Source: a virus (taxonomy: Duplodnaviria; Caudoviricetes). From it: a stretch of 59,151 bases of DNA. Position numbers and translations under genes: made by a program. The stretch covers positions 1-59,151 of IMG/VR virus record IMGVR_UViG_3300048837_000495; one strand, 5' to 3'. Numbering within the stretch: the first letter of the stretch is position 1; the number at the start of each line of letters is the position of its first letter. Of this stretch, positions 1,610-54,254 are shown one piece after another. Under the pieces are notes generated by a model. That model searched no databases and had not been told where the DNA came from. It saw only the letters and a list, made by a program, of their open reading frames with translations.

Positions 1610-1984
1610 ATGGCTGGAGCCTCGAGCACTTTCTCCTAGGAGTATAACAACAACAGTAATGATCTGCCGGGGCGCACCAAGGGCTTTGCTTATGCCTTCG
1701 TCGCCGACAACGCCACCGCGGCATTCACCGCTCACACGACCGCGCTTTCGTTTGACGGGGCTCTGGCTGCTGTAGGTGTAAAGTTCGGCACCACGGCGCC
1801 GGATAGCCTCACTGTGACGGTCGCAGATGTTCTTGGGGTCACTGTAGCGGCTGGCACGGTAACTGCGTCTGGATATCTCGCGCTTGACCGCCCGATGTAT
1901 TTTACTCCTGGACCGCTAACTATTACGCTCTCTGGCAACACGACGAACAGCGCAGCGGCGACTGTCGCTTTGACTTTTGCATAA
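1610..1984 (+). pseudogene. 124-codon virion-like beta-rich protein gene with in-frame TAG at codon 10 (readthrough, nonsense allele or error)
   Basis: AAGGAG SD, ATG 1610, TAG 1637-1639, then open to TAA 1984, which abuts the SD of the next gene; absent from the ORF track. Confidence 0.7.
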
Positions 1985-1993
1985 GGAGTAGCA

Positions 1994-2512
1994 ATGAAAA
2001 CACTCGTACTCGCAGTATCACTTTTGGCCCTCACAGGATGCTCGGCGCTGTTTGGCACTGGCGACTACGGCCAGTATTCAGAGGCTCTTCAATCGCACTC
2101 CGACGCCGAATCGCGCCGCATCGTGGCTCAGTCTTCGGCCATCGCGGAAGCTGCTGCCGTGCCAACCTCCACGCCCACCGAGAGAGCGCTCCTTGCCACC
2201 ATCGCCATGATGCAGATTGAGCGTTTGCAACCGACGCCGCTCGGAATCACGAAACCAACAACCGGCATGGACGTGATGGGCAAGGTTGTTGATGTCGTCC
2301 CTTTTGTTTCATCGACGGCAGGACTCACGTACCTTGGAGTAAAGGCCACACAGGCGGCCGGAAATGTCGAGATCGGGGAAAACGCGACTGTGAGTGGATC
2401 ACTCAACAGACCGAGCGCGACCTCAATTGGCGACGGCGCTACGGCGAATATGCAGCCGTATGAGGTACGACCTGAGGTAGTCAATCCGGTAATTGCTCCT
2501 GCTGCGGAATGA
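1994..2512 (+). CDS. Putative lipoprotein
   Basis: MKT-hydrophobic stretch-LTGC lipobox; SD AAGGAG. Confidence 0.7.
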   Translation: MKTLVLAVSLLALTGCSALFGTGDYGQYSEALQSHSDAESRRIVAQSSAIAEAAAVPTSTPTERALLATIAMMQIERLQPTPLGITKPTTGMDVMGKVVDVVPFVSSTAGLTYLGVKATQAAGNVEIGENATVSGSLNRPSATSIGDGATANMQPYEVRPEVVNPVIAPAAE

Positions 2513-7107: not shown

Positions 7108-7965
7108 ATGACTTGGTCAGCGGAGCAGGTAGAAGAAACAGTTGTTTCTCTGAAAATCGGGGCGCAGCGCGTTAAGAGCTGGGAACAGTGGGTGCTGCTT
7201 ACCTCCGATGTTCATCTTGACAATCCTCTATGTAACAGGCAGCTTTACAAAAAACATCTCGAGCAGGCCAAGGAGCGCAATGCTCCTGTTTTTGATTTCG
7301 GCGACTTCTTCTGCGCCATGCAAGGGAGAAAAGACCCACGGCATGAGAAAGGACATGTTCGACCGGAGAACAACACCGGCGATTATTACGGCTCCCTTGT
7401 TCGTGGAAACTACGAGTTTATCTCGCCATATTCGCAACTTATGGCGCTGCTCTGTAAGGGAAACCACGAAAGTTCGATTCTCAAACACAGCGAGATAGAC
7501 TTAACGCGGGCCATAGTTGACAGAATAAACGACAAAGGCGGAAGCGCACTGGTTGGAGGATACCGTGGGTGGGTATTATTTAGGATTACTAGCGGGCGGC
7601 ACCAGCAAACTTTTCGCATGTATTATACTCACGGATCTGGCGGAAGCGCTCCAGTTACAAAAGGTGTAATTAGAACGAATCGAAGAGCTTCGTTCATCGA
7701 CGCTGACATAATTGTAGGTGGACATATTCATGAGTCGTGGGCGCTTGAGTTGTGCCGCGTAGGAGTTAATGAGGCCGGTAGAGAAGGAGTAACCGACCAA
7801 CTTCATTTATGCGTTTCTACATACAAGGAAGAGTTTAAGCACACGGGCACAGGGTTTCATCACGAAAAAGAAGGTGCGCCAAAGCCACTCGGTGGGTGGT
7901 GGCTACGGTTCTTTTGGGATGCACAGAAGGGTAAGTTTGGCTACGAGTACATGCGAGCAAAGTGA
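7108..7965 (+). CDS. Calcineurin-like metallophosphoesterase
   Basis: SDVH, GDF, GNHE, THG, GHIHE motifs. Confidence 0.85.
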   Translation: MTWSAEQVEETVVSLKIGAQRVKSWEQWVLLTSDVHLDNPLCNRQLYKKHLEQAKERNAPVFDFGDFFCAMQGRKDPRHEKGHVRPENNTGDYYGSLVRGNYEFISPYSQLMALLCKGNHESSILKHSEIDLTRAIVDRINDKGGSALVGGYRGWVLFRITSGRHQQTFRMYYTHGSGGSAPVTKGVIRTNRRASFIDADIIVGGHIHESWALELCRVGVNEAGREGVTDQLHLCVSTYKEEFKHTGTGFHHEKEGAPKPLGGWWLRFFWDAQKGKFGYEYMRAK

Positions 7966-10394
7966 AAACTATTGATTTCAACTATAAAGCCCCGCGAGTA
8001 GTAGGCCAGTTCATGCGCTCTGATGCCGAGTTTAAGGCCATACTCGGACCGTTCGGATCGGGGAAGAGCGTAGGGTGCTGCGTTGAAATCCTTAGACGGT
8101 GCGCACAGCAGCGCAAAGCGCCTGACGGTTTTCGCTATAGTAGATGGGTTGTTATTAGGAACGTCAACCAGCAGTTGAAGGACACCACTCTCAAGACCTG
8201 GTTTCAGTGGATAAAGCCTGGCGTGCTTGGGTACTGGAAAGTTACCGACATGACGTTCTACCTTGAGTTCAACGATGTCAAAGCCGAAATCCTTTTCCGC
8301 GCCCTGGACACGCCCGAGGACGTGCAGAAAGTTCTCTCCTTGGAGATTACCGGGGCCTGGCTAAACGAGTGCCAGTTCATTCCTCGGGAGATCGTAGAGG
8401 GCCTCCAGGGGCGCCTCAAGCGGTATCCCTCGCAAGAGATGGGCGGGTCGAACTATTGGATGCTCATAGCCGATACCAACCCGCCGGCGATCGACACGTA
8501 CTGGCACCGGGTATTCGAGCATCTCCCGATCGACGAGGGCGATGAGAACTCGGTTGTCGAGTGCGACACTTTCAAGCAGCCGTCCGGTCTTGCGCCCGAC
8601 GCGGACAACAAAGAAAACCTCCCGGCGGATTATTATGAGAAGCTGGCAAAGGGGAAATCGAAAGTATTCATTGATGCTTCCGTTCATGCCAAGTATCCGC
8701 CGAGCCAGGCCGGCAAGCCGGTGTATCATGCGACGTTCGATAGGAGCGTGCATGTCTCACCAACACCGCTGCCAATAAACCCGTATCTACCTGTAATTGT
8801 TGGCCAAGATTTCGGGCTTTGCTACGATGACAAAACAGAAGTATTAACTTCTTCTGGGTGGAAGCTGTTTAAGGACGTGTTAGACACAGATACAGTCGCT
8901 ACAAGGAACCCGGTTACTAAAAAACTCGAATACACCGGCATCAATTTCAAAGTAGAACGTAAGTACACTGGAAAGCTAATAGGATGGAGCAGCACCGAGG
9001 TTGATTTCTTAGTTACTCCAGAGCATAGGGTTCCATACACAAGGAGAGACTACCCAGACAACGTGTTGTTTGCTGAGGCATCATGGATAGCAAATAATAT
9101 GACAAAGCATTTGTTTGTAGACTTGGTTTCTACGTGGGAAGGAAAATCATTTACGCCTCCATGCGGTATGAGTATGGAGGTGTATGCTGAGTTGTGTGGA
9201 TGGCTCGCTAGCGATGGTAATTTTGAACTTGGAACAACTAGATTTTGTGTAGCTCAAGTGAAAGAGCACAACGATTTGACAGCGTTACTTGCAAAGACTC
9301 CATTTACATGGAACGCCTCTGATATTAGATACCGCGCATCTAATGAAGAGTTTTACAATCACTTCGTTTCTAAGTGGGGACGTACTAAAACAGAACGTAT
9401 AATATCCGATGAGATAAGGTTTGCTCCTAAAGAAATCATAGAAGTGTTTTTGAAAGCCTTTACTCGCGGAGACGGACACATCCGAGTACGCGCTAACGGA
9501 GCTACTGAGTGGACGATATTTGCAAACAACTACGAGCTGGCCGGAGGGTTACAAGAATTAGCACAAAAATGCGGTAAAAACTCATCTGTACGTATTCAGC
9601 GAGGCCAGGTGTCTTTGCTCGATACTGGACGCGAGATTATTTCTAATGACGGCTACGTAGTAACTATAAAGCAACGAGCTAAAAGAGCGGAGTTATTAAA
9701 GCGCAATTATGTGGAATGCGACTATGATGGTATGATATACTGTCTAAACGTACCATACCACACACTTTACATAAGGCGTAATGGAAAGCCGTCCTGGAAC
9801 GGGAATACTCCTGCTGGTCTGTGGATGCAGATGCAGGAAAACGGCAGGATTTACATTCTGCGGGAGACGCCGGCGTTTGACATGGGGACCAAGCGGTACA
9901 TCCGCTTAAAGTTTAGGCCCATGCACATGACGACGTTTCCTCTTAACCCGATTATTGTCATAGGCGACCCATCTGGGACACGGCGGGCCGATTCGGACGA
10001 AGGGACGAGTTTCAAGGAGTTCAAGGACGCTGGGTATATAGCCAAACCGGCGGCGACAAACGACCCGGAAGTACGAATTAAAGTTCTCGACGAGCTTTTT
10101 TCTTTATTTCCAGATAGAGCACCGGCTATACTTATTGACCCATCGTGCAAAAATTTCATTCAGGCAATGTCTTCTGGCTACCGATACCCGAGGAAAAAGA
10201 TGTCGGTTGCCGAGGACTATGGAGACAAGCCGGAGAAAAACTCGTTCTCGCATCTTGTTGAGGGCGGGCAATATGGGGCGATGTTTCTCACTGGGAAGCG
10301 CTACGACCCGTCCGATTACGTTGTCTATGATGAGGGGTTCAATCCCCTTGCAAACCGAACCTCTTATCGCCCGGCTCAACGGGAAGGCTATTAA
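7962..10394 (+). CDS. terL: Terminase large subunit interrupted by an intein
   Basis: Walker A GPFGSGKS, Walker B-like AWLNE, DTNPP coupling motif, nuclease GQDFG and IGDPSG. Confidence 0.93.
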   Translation: MKTIDFNYKAPRVVGQFMRSDAEFKAILGPFGSGKSVGCCVEILRRCAQQRKAPDGFRYSRWVVIRNVNQQLKDTTLKTWFQWIKPGVLGYWKVTDMTFYLEFNDVKAEILFRALDTPEDVQKVLSLEITGAWLNECQFIPREIVEGLQGRLKRYPSQEMGGSNYWMLIADTNPPAIDTYWHRVFEHLPIDEGDENSVVECDTFKQPSGLAPDADNKENLPADYYEKLAKGKSKVFIDASVHAKYPPSQAGKPVYHATFDRSVHVSPTPLPINPYLPVIVGQDFGLCYDDKTEVLTSSGWKLFKDVLDTDTVATRNPVTKKLEYTGINFKVERKYTGKLIGWSSTEVDFLVTPEHRVPYTRRDYPDNVLFAEASWIANNMTKHLFVDLVSTWEGKSFTPPCGMSMEVYAELCGWLASDGNFELGTTRFCVAQVKEHNDLTALLAKTPFTWNASDIRYRASNEEFYNHFVSKWGRTKTERIISDEIRFAPKEIIEVFLKAFTRGDGHIRVRANGATEWTIFANNYELAGGLQELAQKCGKNSSVRIQRGQVSLLDTGREIISNDGYVVTIKQRAKRAELLKRNYVECDYDGMIYCLNVPYHTLYIRRNGKPSWNGNTPAGLWMQMQENGRIYILRETPAFDMGTKRYIRLKFRPMHMTTFPLNPIIVIGDPSGTRRADSDEGTSFKEFKDAGYIAKPAATNDPEVRIKVLDELFSLFPDRAPAILIDPSCKNFIQAMSSGYRYPRKKMSVAEDYGDKPEKNSFSHLVEGGQYGAMFLTGKRYDPSDYVVYDEGFNPLANRTSYRPAQREGY
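8820..9806 (+). mobile_element. 329-aa intein with LAGLIDADG homing endonuclease
   Basis: Starts CYDDKTEVLT, block B VTPEHR, LCGWLASDG and FLKAFTRGDG motifs, ends IRRNGKPSWNGN before Thr; AT-richer than flanks. Confidence 0.9.
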
Positions 10395-49727: not shown

Positions 49728-49936
49728 ATCAGTTCCTCTATGCGATCCGGGCGAATCTCCTGTCCGTGTACTCTGTCCCACATGGCGAACAAGCACGAAC
49801 AATCCCAGCACAGCGAGTCTGCTTTAGTATACTCTGACGTAACTCGAACAAGTTTCATTCTTCGGTTGCACGTTGGGCACACAGGGCGTTCTGTTGATTT
49901 CAATACTCTTGACATCATCCCCTCCTCATCTCGCAC
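49724..49936 (-). CDS. Small zinc-ribbon protein
   Basis: CPTC...CWDC. Confidence 0.55.
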   Translation of the reverse strand: MRDEEGMMSRVLKSTERPVCPTCNRRMKLVRVTSEYTKADSLCWDCSCLFAMWDRVHGQEIRPDRIEELI

Positions 49937-50736
49937 CCCTCAACAGGGCACCATTTTGCCGAGCACAGCCCGGACTGTTTAGGCGGAAACCTCTCGTTAT
50001 TCCAAGCGTCTTCCATACGGTGAACTCGCGGCAGAAACTCGGCCCAGATAGCCGGGATGTCTTCCTTGGAAGCGGGACGTGCGCCGGTGGTGACTTTGTG
50101 CTTGGTCCAGATGTACTTTCCCTCGAAGTAAACAAGTGAGGGGCGGGCCACCGAGAGAGCCGCGAAATTCAATCGGATCTGGTCGTCATTGTCCTTGATC
50201 TTTCCGCCCGTTTTCCAATCCAAGATCGTGCAGGCTTTCATACTGTTCACACCAATGTCCTTGGTCACGACAACGTCGATCTTCACCCGGAGCCAAGCGT
50301 TCTTGTCGAACCACTTGCATGGCCGCATTGCGCGGGTCAGCGCGAGTTCGACCTCGGCCTCTTTCTTATGCGGGCTGGAGAGTATAGCGTTCAGGTATGG
50401 CTGCACCTCAAGCTCGGCTTCCGGGTCGTCATGCGGAATGCCTTTAATGCGCTTCTCAGGCAGCGCGTGGACCCTATTCCCCCAGATGATCGCCTCAGTT
50501 TCATGGAACGGCGCGGTGCAGTAGAAATGCTTGGCGGCGTACTGTCTTGGGCACGTCTCAAAATCGGCAAGCCGGGAATGGGACCAGGAAAATGGCTTTC
50601 CTTTGGCGTTTAGTACTGGGGTCATCGGCGTTACCTCAAAAGATTTAACAGGTATGTCTCCCTCACAGTTCGGGCACCCGCAGCCAAACTGCTCTGCCGC
50701 TGCCTCGTACCCACACTTCTCGCATTGGTGTTTCAT
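49915..50736 (-). CDS. PD-(D/E)xK (Cas4/RecB-like) exonuclease
   Basis: SWSHSRL..FETCP, KID, ILDWKTG, GLC..WC...C. Confidence 0.85.
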   Translation of the reverse strand: MKHQCEKCGYEAAAEQFGCGCPNCEGDIPVKSFEVTPMTPVLNAKGKPFSWSHSRLADFETCPRQYAAKHFYCTAPFHETEAIIWGNRVHALPEKRIKGIPHDDPEAELEVQPYLNAILSSPHKKEAEVELALTRAMRPCKWFDKNAWLRVKIDVVVTKDIGVNSMKACTILDWKTGGKIKDNDDQIRLNFAALSVARPSLVYFEGKYIWTKHKVTTGARPASKEDIPAIWAEFLPRVHRMEDAWNNERFPPKQSGLCSAKWCPVEGCEMRRG

Positions 50737-50755
50737 ATTAGTGGCTATCAGTATT

Positions 50756-50877
50756 TGGTGCCAGCGGCAGGGTTCGAACCTGCACGTTAGATGCTTTAAC
50801 CGTCTCTAACAAGTATCGCCTCGAACGGCGTTTGCGTGTTGGTCAATCTTCGCGTCTACCAATTCCGCCACGCTGGC
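50756..50877 (-). tRNA. Aberrant 122-nt Leu-type tRNA-like RNA with expanded central region
   Basis: Acceptor GCCAGCG/CGCTGGC + ACCA, D arm GCGGAATTGGTAGACGC, T arm GCAGG-TTCGAAC-CCTGC. Confidence 0.75.
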
Positions 50878-50887
50878 TCGTTTTGAC

Positions 50888-50953
50888 TCGCCGCAGTCAA
50901 TGTGGCTCTCAAGTTCGCCGCAGTCAATGTGGCTCTCAATATCGCCGCTGTCA
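50888..50953. repeat. 27-bp-period tandem repeat (two full copies plus a partial)
   Basis: TCGCCGCAGTCAATGTGGCTCTCAA x2, then TCGCCGCTGTCA. Confidence 0.85.
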
Positions 50954-51090
50954 TCGCGATCGCTTCGCTCTCTCATTTACTGTGAGCCGCAGTCACGCGC
51001 TTCAAGTGGCGCGGCGCCCACCATTGAGGAGGGAGATCACTCCTCGGGTTACTGCGGAGCAGCGTGTGCCGGTTTCTGCGCCCTCAATAA

Positions 51091-51162
51091 GGGACCGGCA
51101 AGGAATCGAACCTTGCACAGCGTTTCCCGCTCGCTTTACCTATGGCATCGCTTTTACGGCCC
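51091..51162 (-). ncRNA. Second, degenerate tRNA-like element
   Basis: T arm GCAAGG-TTCGATT-CCTTGC, GGGCCG/CGGTCC acceptor-like stem, AGCG-GGAAA-CGCT hairpin; no clear D arm or CCA. Confidence 0.5.
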
Positions 51163-51179
51163 GATTGTGGCCACAATCC

Positions 51180-51740
51180 GCTGACTAGGTGCGTTGTTTA
51201 TTGCGCAACACTTTCTGCGTCTCACCTTTCCGCCACGGTCCCTACCCCAAAAGCCCCCGCCATTCTTCGTGGCTAAGGGGCGAGGGCTTAGCTTTGCGAA
51301 GGCCGGTAACATCCGATGTCCGGCCGTTCGATACATTTTTATTGGTTCAGGGACGATCTCTTATTCTCATGGCTGCACCGTTGCAGATTCCCGATCTTGT
51401 TACCGTCGCCACCGGCTTGTTTGGCTATTTTGTTATCGCCGAATTGTTTCCCGGCCAGCGCCTACCGGCTTCCTGTCTGCTACATGGCGTCACCCGTCGG
51501 TTGAACTGAAACTTTAGGCTATAAGGTCGCCACCCTCCTACGCCCTCAACCCCGCACCGAGTGCCTTACTGCGACGTGGCAGCGTCTTGGCACACAGCTA
51601 ACGGGGCTACTATCTGAGGGGCCGTTTCCATCGATTTGCCTGCACGGCCGCAGGGTGCGGTTACCTACCGCTAAGAGGGGGTAGAAGGTGAGCTACCCAA
51701 ACTTTCTAACGAGCGGATCGATGGTGCCAAGGAAACCTAC
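51180..51740 (-). ncRNA. Candidate large structured non-coding RNA region
   Basis: No credible ORF; many nested inverted repeats; downstream of the promoter at 52070. Confidence 0.45.
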
Positions 51741-51742
51741 GA

Positions 51743-51979
51743 CTACTCAACCCGCCAACAGCGGAACCCGCCATCAACGCGGCGAACGGTGAACTTGAAG
51801 CCGAACTTTTTAGCGGCTTGCCGGGCTGACGACCGGAGAGATCCGTCGGTCTTCGGTTTGCCGTCGACCTGCGGCACGAAAAACGAGTCACCCACTTCCA
51901 TGGTTGCGAACGGGTAAACCGATTTTCCCACAAAGATTTTCTTGGCCGGTACTTCGATTCCTTTCTCGATCTGATACAT
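51743..51979 (-). CDS. Small basic protein, probably DNA-binding
   Basis: IEKGIEVP...YPF..MEVGDSFFVP...RCWRVE; SD GGAGG. Confidence 0.75.
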   Translation of the reverse strand: MYQIEKGIEVPAKKIFVGKSVYPFATMEVGDSFFVPQVDGKPKTDGSLRSSARQAAKKFGFKFTVRRVDGGFRCWRVE

Positions 51980-52041
51980 GTGCTGCTCCTCCCTGTTTTT
52001 GCTGGTGTGCTTGGCTGATGCCGAGCTTCATGTTATGCTTT

Positions 52042-52070
52042 ACCTTAACACACTGTTACTGAGTTTACAA
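52042..52070 (-). promoter_or_regulatory. Putative sigma70 promoter for the small gene and ncRNA locus
   Basis: TTGTAA-17bp-TAAGGT with TG extension. Confidence 0.45.
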
Positions 52071-52091
52071 CTAAAAAGTGATGCGGGTGTA

Positions 52092-54254
52092 TTATTTATC
52101 GCACTCGCCATAACTGCGAGCATACCCACCGGACGACTTGAGAGGGAGGTCGGCGCACCATGACGGTGGTGTCCGCATCTCTTTCTCCATCAGCGCAAGA
52201 CACGCATCGGCGTACCGTTCGGGAACGACAGCTATTAGTTCGTCATGAGTGCTTGAGACGATCCTTGCTTCCTCTCCAGCACGTAACCGATAGAGTTTCA
52301 TCTGCGGAAGTATGCGCAAAAGCTGGTCCGAGAGAACGAGCCGGGACAATGCCTGGACGATGTTCTCAACGCATTTCCCTCCATAGATATAGGTCCATTG
52401 CTTCTTGCGAGCGTTCGATAAATATTTCCACTCCCCACTTTTGGTACTCCGCAACTTGTGGTAGCGGATTTTCATACCGTTCGGCAGCCGGAACCCATCC
52501 GCGCAGGTTGTAACCATACCCCTCTGGCCGACTTCAACCTCAACCCCGTTGGAAATATATTGCAGCGCGTTCTGCGCTTCCTTCCACAAGCGGACGATGG
52601 CGTCGTTACTCTCCCGGTACTTGTCAACGATCTGCTTGGTCGCTGCGCAATGCCACAGGTGCGCTTCCTCGCCCACGTTCAACGGTTTCATGGCAAGCGC
52701 CTCGTCACGCAGGGTGCCACAGCCTTTTTTATAACTGCGGCCGCAGCAAAACACGTCGATGTCCGCTCCGAGCTTCCTGGCCGCGGCCTCATCGAAAAGG
52801 ACTGGTGGGGCACCCATGAACCCAACGCGAAGTGACTCCTGGAATTTCCCCCACCCCATCCCATAACCATTACCGAGTGTACTGCACTTACCGACTAGGC
52901 CCTCAAGGAAAAACTCGTCAAGTTTACGGTTTACCTCGTACCCGAAAATCTTTGACGCTTGTCGGTTGTACGGGTCGCCGCCTGTTTTGAACAGCATCAG
53001 GAGGTCTTCTTGCCCCGCCACATAGGCGAGCATCCTGGCCTCGATCTGCCCAAGGTCGCGCACGACAACGGCATGCCCTGGAGGGGCAACCAGCGACATG
53101 CGCAGCGCCCCGGCGGTGATGTCTTTCGGATTTACCCGGTTCAAGTTTTGCGCGTTTTGCTTGTCGCCCCCGGACCAGCGGTTGGTATGCGCTCCGTAGT
53201 AGTTCAGGTACACCGGAAACCGACCGCGCTTGCCGATTTTGTAGAACCGCTTGCTTCGTGTTTCCTTAATCGTTGACTTGATCCCAAGCCGGGCCTCGAC
53301 AACAGCCTGCACCTGTGGGTCCGGGTGCTCAAGAAGAAGTTTGAACTCCTCGTCGGATTTCCCGAAGGCGTACGCCCACGGGTAGGCATTACCCTCGGCC
53401 TTGAGCCGAACCCGCTCCGCTGGGTCTTTCACACCTTTCGTTGTAAACGAGGGGAGAATACCCCGAGGCGGGTCGCCAACGTTGTCCGGGTCAACTCGAC
53501 CGTCCTTTACTTTTGCCGGGCTAAGTTTTTTCGGGGGGTCAACCCCAAGGCCAAGCAAAAGCGCGGCGAACTGGTCGTTGGATGCAAGGACGGACTTGTC
53601 GGCGCTTGCCTGCTTAAGCAGTGCCCGCTTGGTCCTGCGCTCCTGCTTGTAGGCCGCGACGAGGGGCACCGGGTCCACCTGGAGGGCTGGCTCGGTAAAA
53701 CAGCGAATTGTCCAGTCGATCAGCCGTAGCTCGCTCACCGGGAAATGTCCCTTCATCGCGTCAAAATTGGCCGCTGTAAGCTCGACATCGTTCAGGCAGT
53801 ACGAACCTATGGTCTGCTGCTCCGCGTCCGTCAGGAGCCAGTTCCCGGCGAAACTGGCCAGCTCAACGCCCTTCTCCCCAGTTCCGAGGAGTTTTGAGAT
53901 ATTGGCCAGGCTTGCCGACTCATGCGGGAACACTGCTCGGGCCATGGACATGGTGCAGCCCCAAAACGCTGGGCGGATACCAGCCCGCCAGGAGAGGATG
54001 GCCCCGTCAAACTGCGCATGGTGTGCAATAACCCAGGACTTCTCCCACGGGTGGGTTTTCAGGAAATGGAGGAGGTCATCCGGCTTGTGGAGATAAAACG
54101 CTCGCTCGGTCCCAATCTTCACCCCCAGCCCGTGCGCTTTGAACAATTTGTGCCGCACATACTCCTCGGTTGTCATCGAGGACAGGGTGTAATTGAGCCC
54201 AGTCTGTGGGTGCTTGCCGTAGGCGGTTTCCCAGTCGAGGACGACGCGGATCAT
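52092..54254 (-). CDS. Family A DNA polymerase with 3'-5' exonuclease
   Basis: Exo LDWET, HHAQFD, YCLND; motif A DLGQIEAR, B K...LG..YG, C THDE. Confidence 0.93.
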   Translation of the reverse strand: MIRVVLDWETAYGKHPQTGLNYTLSSMTTEEYVRHKLFKAHGLGVKIGTERAFYLHKPDDLLHFLKTHPWEKSWVIAHHAQFDGAILSWRAGIRPAFWGCTMSMARAVFPHESASLANISKLLGTGEKGVELASFAGNWLLTDAEQQTIGSYCLNDVELTAANFDAMKGHFPVSELRLIDWTIRCFTEPALQVDPVPLVAAYKQERRTKRALLKQASADKSVLASNDQFAALLLGLGVDPPKKLSPAKVKDGRVDPDNVGDPPRGILPSFTTKGVKDPAERVRLKAEGNAYPWAYAFGKSDEEFKLLLEHPDPQVQAVVEARLGIKSTIKETRSKRFYKIGKRGRFPVYLNYYGAHTNRWSGGDKQNAQNLNRVNPKDITAGALRMSLVAPPGHAVVVRDLGQIEARMLAYVAGQEDLLMLFKTGGDPYNRQASKIFGYEVNRKLDEFFLEGLVGKCSTLGNGYGMGWGKFQESLRVGFMGAPPVLFDEAAARKLGADIDVFCCGRSYKKGCGTLRDEALAMKPLNVGEEAHLWHCAATKQIVDKYRESNDAIVRLWKEAQNALQYISNGVEVEVGQRGMVTTCADGFRLPNGMKIRYHKLRSTKSGEWKYLSNARKKQWTYIYGGKCVENIVQALSRLVLSDQLLRILPQMKLYRLRAGEEARIVSSTHDELIAVVPERYADACLALMEKEMRTPPSWCADLPLKSSGGYARSYGECDK

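Follow-up and report, generated by a model that had tools for sequence, protein, structure and literature searches.

Does the gene-free interval at positions 51180-51740 encode an RNA of its own, or is it the non-coding filling of a larger accessory locus? The window analysed here covers an IMG/VR virus record in full (59,151 bases; estimated completeness 97%). The initial annotation had read the interval as a candidate large structured non-coding RNA, lying behind a promoter and possibly partnered with the product of a small basic protein gene. Genes in the window are encoded on the plus strand over approximately the first 38 kb and on the minus strand from 38 kb to the end of the record, and the interval falls within the minus-strand block. 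Upstream of it on that strand are a family A DNA polymerase gene (52092-54254, minus strand) and the small protein gene (51743-51979, minus strand), which indeed encodes a basic product (78 aa, pI 9.9) and belongs to the family DUF7303 (Pfam PF23978, E 2.3e-11; PHROG 7597, function unknown). Downstream of the non-coding stretch lies a PD-(D/E)XK nuclease gene (49915-50736, minus strand), and an Rv2179c-like exonuclease is also encoded on this side. No credible gene is present in the approximately 1,000 bases that separate the stop codon of the DUF7303 gene from the start codon of the nuclease gene, and the description of this ~1-kb locus as non-coding, RNA-type and carried on the gene strand was borne out. 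The G+C content of the interval is 56%, compared with 55% for the genome.

The absence of a credible gene in the interval also held. None of five frames had a Pfam or PHROG match, and none of 32 stop-to-stop frames had a relative in other loci below E 1e-3 by tblastn, save for the RNA-level match that is described below. With no Pfam, PHROG or tblastn relative, a coding reading of the interval was rejected. Likewise, no RNA family could be assigned, in agreement with the initial annotation: the Rfam search was empty for the interval, and Rfam 15 at gathering scores returned no matches over the whole window. When E values up to 10 were admitted over 50600-52150, the search gave a tRNA, one chance lncRNA match and a weak 15.6-bit match to a tRNA-like model (51092-51133), which covers the T arm and acceptor of tRNA-like gene #2, and nothing else. 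ARAGORN at default settings found neither a tRNA nor a tmRNA. When its threshold was relaxed, a permuted tmRNA was suggested at 51091-51326. Its tag, ETQKVLRNKQRT, lacks the usual hydrophobic end, and the candidate was rejected.

The limits first drawn for the interval were correct in enclosing a non-coding stretch but not at their lower edge: the 63 bases at 51180-51242 already belong to tRNA-like gene #2 (51090-51242, minus strand), of which they make up the 5' half. For the remaining part, 51243-51740, blastn and nhmmer detected no homologue in 132 related loci, and no DNA match was present in 5 + 4 whole related or module-bearing records. A search of 50,697 GenBank phage genomes with E up to 1 also yielded no homologue, and its only product was a 22-nt T-arm match. 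Two exact patterns (21 and 23 nt) from the part nearest the DUF7303 gene, which we call block D (51538-51742), had no matches in IMG/VR, the window's own record being excluded.

Near-identical relatives were more informative. The stretch is present in part in 20 public runs from 15 studies, and contigs of four of these runs, each from a different study (X1, X2, X5 and X7), were analysed for variants over 50400-52300. X2 and other runs are labelled RNA-Seq, were flagged as probably DNA and were kept only as contigs; no RNA holder is listed for the stretch. A 462-bp cassette (51076-51537, minus strand), which carries a 295-nt spacer C (51243-51537, minus strand) and tRNA-like gene #2, is absent in some relatives, with joints at 51075>51538 (X7, a 995-nt contig) and 51078>51541 (X2). 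The indel is flanked by a 12-nt direct repeat: copy A, CTGCGCCCTCAA (51076-51087), begins 2 nt past the 3' end of tRNA-like gene #2, and copy B, CTACGCCCTCAA (51538-51549), forms the upstream border. Read on the minus strand, the 12-mer provides the 3' strand of a hairpin at 51541-51622 and of a smaller hairpin following tRNA-like gene #2. Allowing up to one mismatch, it has three matches in the window versus 0.64 expected.

Other variants are nested in or around this cassette. In X2 and X7, 655 bp are missing and 50 other letters stand in their place (joint 51087>51743), with the 78-aa gene kept; in X5, an 802-nt contig lacks 171 bp that include tRNA-like gene #2 (joint 51072>51244), and the same contig has 51284-51348 swapped for 28 letters. 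Two joints fall within spacer C (51289>51428 and 51289>51467, both in X1), and further contig joints occur around tRNA-like gene #1. Between the two tRNA-like genes, four copies of TCGCCGCAGTCA, two of them 27-bp tandem units, are found at 50888-50995, and their copy number differs among natural relatives (joint 50883>50942 in X7). Altogether, four haplotypes were distinguished: block D with spacer C and tRNA-like gene #2, as in this phage; block D with spacer C but without tRNA-like gene #2; block D alone; and none of the three. The DUF7303 gene is present in all four haplotypes and block D in three. The existence of natural relatives without the 462 bp, without the 171 bp or without all 655 bp speaks against a single large RNA gene.

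The tRNA-like elements that had been noted beside the interval proved to be real. The first, tRNA-like gene #1 (50756-50877, minus strand), has a tRNA-Leu body with a 7-bp acceptor, a D arm, a T arm, A73 and an encoded CCA, and scores 40.9 bits with the Rfam tRNA model (50759-50877), for which the gathering score is 29. A 65-nt insert (50787-50851) stands in for its anticodon and variable arms: there is no 7-nt anticodon loop, the Rfam alignment places a 53-nt insertion at that point, and ARAGORN gives no call without its intron option. In an X2 contig, 50787-50851 is replaced by 32 other letters. Read by hand on the minus strand, these letters form a 5-bp stem with the loop CUUAAAA (anticodon UAA), as well as a variable-arm hairpin of 5 bp, so that this variant, which shares its acceptor, D and T arms with tRNA-like gene #1, is a predicted ordinary tRNA-Leu(UAA). 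A73 and the D/T elbow are retained in tRNA-like gene #1, and LeuRS is known not to read the anticodon.

From the sequence itself, tRNA-like gene #2 has a perfect 7-bp acceptor (GGGACCG/CGGUCCC), a Leu-type D arm that is 81% identical to the D arm of tRNA-like gene #1, and a T arm with the loop UUCGAUU. Approximately 100 nt (51117-51216) occupy the anticodon-arm position, no CCA is encoded, and ARAGORN makes a call at a relaxed threshold only. The acceptor stems of the pair read GGGACCG and GCCAGCG. X2 contigs skip exactly the insert of tRNA-like gene #2 (51116/7>51217/25), and X5 skips the whole gene. ARAGORN intron models (Arg-GCG with a 25-nt intron; Ala-UGC with a 56-nt intron) were dropped, as they conflict with the homology of the insert. 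A third gene of this kind, 174 nt long, lies just before the nuclease gene of a related locus (L122) whose polymerase is 75% identical; it has an identical D arm, a T arm, the acceptor GGGGCAG/CUGCCCC, an encoded CCA and a different insert of ~115 nt. By eye, this gene is preceded by a TTGACA-type promoter-like sequence. Comparison of tRNA-like gene #1, its X2 variant, tRNA-like gene #2 and the L122 gene shows that one tRNA body has received at least three different centre pieces in the lineage.

The insert of tRNA-like gene #1 gave the only match of the locus in the phage database, 57 nt that are 84% identical to Bordetella phage PHB04. There, the copy lies in sequence without annotation that follows genes for tRNA-Met, tRNA-Asn and tRNA-Pro and a permuted tmRNA (RF04321, 104.5 bits); it begins ~20 nt past the tmRNA. 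We refer to the shared element as the R1 module (69 nt; 50783-50851, minus strand; 84.4 bits, E 9e-18). In its fold, a short helix P1 encloses the hairpin P2 and is followed by the hairpin P3, which bears an invariant 13-nt loop, GACGGUUAAAGCA. Six bases of this loop can pair with an invariant upstream UUGACC, giving a candidate pseudoknot (UUGACC:GGUUAA) in which the members show no variation. With filters off, the copy at 50783-50851, outside the flagged interval, is the only one in the window; a loop in spacer C that resembles the R1 loop (about 51405-51425) obtained no model score. The L122 insert is not matched by the R1 model either.

Further members were reached by pattern scans built on the shared core, a first scan of the genome collection having been empty. 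They comprise the IMG/VR contigs L134, L139, L140 and L146 and L137, a contig from a Smithella MAG on which a phage terminase is encoded. Among 151 genomes of the order to which G012 belongs, the module occurs in one, on a contig with a phage terminase. Two candidates were dropped as chance pattern matches: L138, inside a DEAD-box helicase gene, and L147, which is apparently coding and falls below the model threshold. The seven members score 69-92 bits with the R1 covariance model. In their alignment (n = 7), 10 of the 19 proposed pairs vary on both sides and 98.5% of the cells are paired; none of 500 shuffles reached this covariation, and slid controls drop to 19-55% paired. tRNA genes accompany five of the seven copies. 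In this phage the copy is part of the tRNA-Leu body, in PHB04 it belongs to the tRNA/tmRNA cluster, in L139 and L146 it follows directly on the 3' side of tRNA-Tyr, and in L140 it precedes six tRNAs. In L146, R1 is closed by a 7-bp stem, after which comes a D-arm-like hairpin. Word searches of the literature (for the invariant 11-mer, for such tRNA bodies and for the motif) returned nothing relevant in the portions of text that they cover.

Returning to the flagged interval itself, all the complementary segments that had drawn attention to it are present, at most a few bases away from where they were first placed. Nested complementary segments in DNA of 56% G+C are weak evidence, though, and the natural population shows that the stretch can be lost. 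Folded as a whole, the 561 nt gave z -2.24 on the minus strand, where one shuffle in 100 was equally good, and z -0.13 on the plus strand, where 44 in 100 were. Within it, the hairpin at 51541-51622 departs most from shuffled sequence, and the middle 150 nt (51350-51499) do not differ from it (z +0.11). The z-scores of individual elements are inflated, since the elements had been selected by eye.

Block D contains two elements. Block D2 (51541-51622, minus strand) is a long irregular hairpin of 28 pairs, including five G-U, with z -3.40 on the minus strand (1 of 200 shuffles) versus -0.54 on the plus strand; across the genome, only 9 of 16,878 windows of 82 nt are as stable (top 0.05%). It is the only clearly unusual structure in the interval. 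Block D1 (51626-51726, minus strand) is a multibranch or four-way element with an 8-bp closing stem, CCAUCGAU/AUCGAUGG, and three or four short hairpins inside (MFE -36.3 kcal/mol). It has z -2.95 on the minus strand and -2.99 on the plus strand, and its absolute stability is ordinary, being equalled or beaten by 1,646 of 16,872 genome windows. Spacer C has GC-rich hairpins at 51301-51325 and 51253-51281 and ~150 nt without special structure; the segment 51244-51350 has z -1.8 on the minus and -1.9 on the plus strand. Sliding 120-nt windows are mostly unremarkable. Taken together, the z-scores and genome-wide stability ranks show one element that is clearly unusual and strand-specific and two that are mildly so, with approximately a third of the interval plain. 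A single large structured RNA of the GOLLD or ROOL kind is not supported: there is no model match and no homologue in any of the collections searched, and half of the interval folds like its shuffles.

Variation within block D was examined as well. Block D, with its hairpin D2, is ~95% identical in X7 and X5 contigs that lack the neighbouring parts. Among the block D substitutions listed, in a variant table with 206 further differences, three fall on unpaired bases and one changes a G-C pair to G-U on the minus strand; block D1 accounts for two of the unpaired changes and for the G-C to G-U change. These substitutions are compatible with a conserved fold and concern only four sites.

Signals of independent expression were also sought. 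The promoter that had been placed ahead of the locus was not recovered, as no sigma-70-like promoter was found in 49800-52400. The same region contains no minus-strand intrinsic terminator, that is, no GC hairpin with a U-run; the hairpin at 51253-51281 is followed by only four U.

The proposed partnership with the 78-aa protein fared no better. The DUF7303 family is common in phages, and 80 of 337 relatives were kept for comparison. The region occurs in none of these 80 DUF7303 loci, and the R1 module is absent from all 75 of them that were searched for it. A tRNA lies within 2.5 kb in only 7 of the 80. The ORF-free run after the DUF7303 gene is shorter than 200 nt in 74 of the 76 loci with enough flank, by a rough measure that spurious ORFs distort in the window and that was applied to other loci only. 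Conversely, X2 and X7 contigs keep the gene without the RNA region. Since the gene is kept without the region and the two do not co-occur, the partnership is not supported.

What the locus corresponds to in more distant phages was examined in 14 IMG/VR loci and 28 metagenome loci whose polymerases are 30-75% identical to that of the window. Sequence resembling 51243-51740 was detected in none of them by blastn or nhmmer. In these relatives, about 340 to 3,400 bp separate the polymerase gene from the nuclease gene, and the gap contains unrelated small ORFs. In 3 of the 14 IMG/VR relatives, tRNA-Pro comes right after the polymerase gene; in one of the loci (L002), the first ORF after tRNA-Pro encodes an RtcB tRNA ligase (E 6e-112), and another (L011) has an ORF equal in length and start to that RtcB ORF. 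The variation of the gap, together with its tRNA-Pro and RtcB content, indicates that the slot is a hypervariable accessory site leaning towards tRNA functions.

Our preferred reading, which we hold with moderate confidence, is that the interval is not an RNA gene of its own and represents the non-coding content of a hypervariable accessory slot in a 59-kb wastewater phage. It is most likely a co-transcribed spacer or 3'-untranslated region whose hairpins play a part in RNA processing or stability and delimit cassettes. Gene order, the asymmetry between strands and the indel borders lead us to infer the following mechanism. The slot lies between the DNA polymerase and DUF7303 genes and the PD-(D/E)XK nuclease gene and would be read with them on the minus strand. 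In the 5' to 3' direction, the transcript would pass from the DUF7303 stop codon through a 200-nt block with the four-way element and the 28-pair hairpin, then through the 295-nt spacer, and into the 5' half of tRNA-like gene #2. The interval would thereby provide the DUF7303 message with its 3' untranslated end and tRNA-like gene #2 with its leader. Host tRNA-processing enzymes would cut the long transcript at the tRNA-like bodies, and the hairpins would then act as processing or stability elements. The 28-pair hairpin looks like a 3'-end barrier insulating the DUF7303 message or, judging by its shape only, like an RNase III-type site. The 12-mer in the 3' strands of two hairpins would mark the site at which cassettes are gained and lost by recombination, and the slot as a whole would serve tRNA-related accessory functions.

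This spacer reading agrees with the location of the local genes and both tRNA-like genes on the minus strand and with the finding that the best hairpin folds only on that strand. Also in its favour are the mosaic structure of the locus, its orphan sequence, the variable and tRNA-related content of the slot in relatives and the lack of any coding signal. Some observations argue against it. No U-tract follows any minus-strand hairpin, and there is consequently no classical terminator. In addition, the four listed substitutions spare the predicted pairs, which a trans-acting RNA under selection would fit too. Block D is moreover retained in three of the four haplotypes and may therefore have a role beyond that of filler.

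Two known arrangements offer a context for the spacer reading. In early transcripts of T7, RNase III processing hairpins stand between genes. Hairpin D2 would be comparable to them as an irregular hairpin of ~80 nt with internal loops, placed between genes of a polycistronic unit, although there is no sequence relation. In the hyperplastic regions of T4-type phages, boundaries are marked by repeated stem-loops (PeSL cassettes), and cassettes are gained and lost between short repeats located in stem-loops. The 12-mer that borders the 462-bp indel here is similar in this respect but has no promoter motif and only two or three copies in the genome. On the whole, the flagged interval appears largely ordinary, a variable spacer of an accessory slot with one strong hairpin.

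As an alternative, block D, by itself or together with spacer C, could be a structured small RNA that is specific to the lineage, has its own function and is released from the transcript, but we consider this unlikely. The D2 hairpin, strand-specific and extreme in stability, is what such an RNA would be expected to show, as are the near-identity of the block in X5 and X7 variants that have lost its neighbours and an intact fold after all four of the listed substitutions. The neighbouring tRNA bodies carry RNA cargo, which argues that the slot holds functional RNAs. However, the block has no homologue beyond near-identical relatives, some of which lack it, its four-way element is matched in stability by a tenth of genome windows, and neither a promoter nor a terminator is evident.

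We also regard as improbable that the interval is functionless debris, made of decayed cassettes (old tRNA genes, ORFs, mobile pieces) in a recombination hot spot, its apparent structure coming from G+C-rich sequence and from selection by eye. Orphan, dispensable sequence with nested natural deletions is what this explanation predicts, and it is consistent with the 150 nt that fold like shuffles, with the unremarkable sliding windows and with a G+C content close to that of the genome. A hairpin that is both strand-specific and extreme does not follow from it, however, nor do listed substitutions that avoid pairs, and phage genomes rarely keep 500 nt of junk.

A function at the DNA level, as a replication origin or recombination site of the replication module, is very unlikely. 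The position between polymerase and nuclease genes would suit such an element, and so would the four 12-mer copies at 27-bp spacing just downstream (50888-50995), a perfect 16-bp palindrome at 51164-51179 and the equal stability of the four-way element on both strands. Yet these iterons lie outside the interval, the best hairpin needs G-U pairs available on one strand only, and relatives that retain the iteron part dispense with the region. Finally, one or more unrecognised small protein genes are scarcely credible, as the ORFs available (106, 107 and 62 aa on the plus strand; 60 aa on the minus strand) oppose the local gene direction or overlap the tRNA-like gene, and have no relative in the searches above, and the deletions in natural relatives (462, 655, 171, 138 and 177 bp) are not consistently multiples of three.

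GOLLD and ROOL, with which the locus had been compared, are large phage-associated non-coding RNAs that lie beside tRNAs. The interval shares with them its non-coding nature, its phage origin and its place next to tRNA-type genes. It differs in lacking a model match even at E 10 and in being unconserved, only partly structured, mosaic and dispensable.

For the slot as a whole, we tentatively propose, as a possibility rather than an expectation, an array of natural tRNA-scaffolded RNAs: a tRNA-Leu-type chassis would be cut out and stabilised by host enzymes, and its cargo would be swapped at the anticodon-arm position. Three cargo states are seen, namely the Leu-UAA arm of the wild variant, R1 in this phage, and the unrelated inserts of ~100 nt (tRNA-like gene #2) and ~115 nt (L122). 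Block D would then be a further, unscaffolded cargo RNA. Given that the slot contains tRNA-Pro and a gene for an RtcB tRNA ligase in relatives, such cargo might act as a decoy or inhibitor of host enzymes that attack tRNAs, or of translation factors. If cargo RNAs do counter host defences directed at tRNAs, the contest between phage and host over tRNAs would gain an RNA-based layer.

Two features of the slot are possibly new. One is a small RNA fold that has covariation support, is linked to phage tRNA genes and has no entry in Rfam 15. The other is the occurrence of tRNA bodies with foreign RNA in place of the anticodon arm, a design that engineers use for RNA expression and that phages have apparently invented. 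Ponchon and Dardel reportedly engineered tRNA scaffolds for the expression of recombinant RNA. Their cargo is placed at the anticodon-arm position with the acceptor, D and T arms kept, exactly as in tRNA-like genes #1 and #2 and the L122 gene, but these three genes are natural and are known here from sequence. A comparison with tmRNA is also instructive. Both have an acceptor and T-arm body in which the anticodon arm gives way to a larger structured insert with a possible pseudoknot, whereas the tRNA-like genes have no tag frame, carry G-C or C-G rather than G-U at position 3:70 and retain a full D arm.

Several RNAs are released from tRNA operons, among them E. coli rtT after tyrT, the 3'ETS-leuZ sponge and the stable RNAs of the T4 tRNA cluster. 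No Rfam family, rtT included, overlaps any copy of R1, which differs from these RNAs in that respect but resembles them in location: it lies directly 3' of tRNA-Tyr in two phage contigs and in or beside tRNA clusters in three.

The 69-nt RNA module, whose copy in the window (50783–50851, minus strand) sits inside the first tRNA-like gene, is absent from Rfam 15, and seven members are known. It comprises three helices, with compensatory changes at 10 of 19 pairs in the seven-member set, and the loop GACGGUUAAAGCA is invariant across members; a pseudoknot is possible. The remaining copies were found in Bordetella phage PHB04 (locus L105, 6900–6968, plus strand) and in contigs L134 (1279–1346, minus), L137 (1325–1396, plus), L139 (648–715, minus), L140 (68–132, plus) and L146 (2636–2702, minus). 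All seven members lie in a phage context, five of them with tRNA genes alongside.

Three tRNA-Leu-type bodies retain the acceptor, D and T arms, while the anticodon arm has been swapped for unrelated inserts: 65 nt in the window body at 50756–50877 (minus strand), about 100 nt in that at 51090–51242 (minus strand), and about 115 nt in a body from L122, a locus of a polymerase relative (1922–2099, plus strand). CCA is encoded in two of the three. A wild variant of the 50756–50877 body, from public sequencing runs, carries a normal Leu-UAA arm.

The repeat TCGCCGCAGTCA occurs four times within window positions 50888–50995, including two copies as 27-bp tandem units, and one wild variant has a different copy number (joint 50883>50942); these copies may be iterons or protein-binding sites. 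The insert of the second tRNA-like gene contains a perfect 16-bp palindrome, GATTGTGGCCACAATC (51164–51179), which resembles either a tight hairpin or a DNA site of the operator type.

In the polymerase relatives L002 and L011, the slot between the polymerase and nuclease genes contains tRNA-Pro(UGG) (8329–8405 and 7679–7755, respectively). The next ORF in L002 encodes an RtcB tRNA ligase (8430–9623), and the ORF following the tRNA in L011 matches it in length and start. The presence of this tRNA and the RtcB ORF in relatives hints at a role for the slot in tRNA supply or repair. The polymerase match in L011 (4350–7537) is itself split by about 1.0 kb of extra sequence, and that in another relative, L015 (6001–9030), by about 0.86 kb; the extra sequence could be an intron, an intein or a gene inserted into the polymerase gene.

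At a second PHB04 locus (L096, 2960–3430, minus strand), tRNA-Pro and a permuted tmRNA are separated by about 450 nt that are poor in ORFs, carry no annotation and match no Rfam family at E values up to 1. This stretch is a further unexplained non-coding block in a phage tRNA cluster. Sub-threshold group I intron matches (33–35 bits versus a gathering score of 50) were observed in two module-bearing contigs, L137 (6764–6949, plus strand) and L139 (1–222, minus strand), with the L139 match adjoining a capsid gene fragment.
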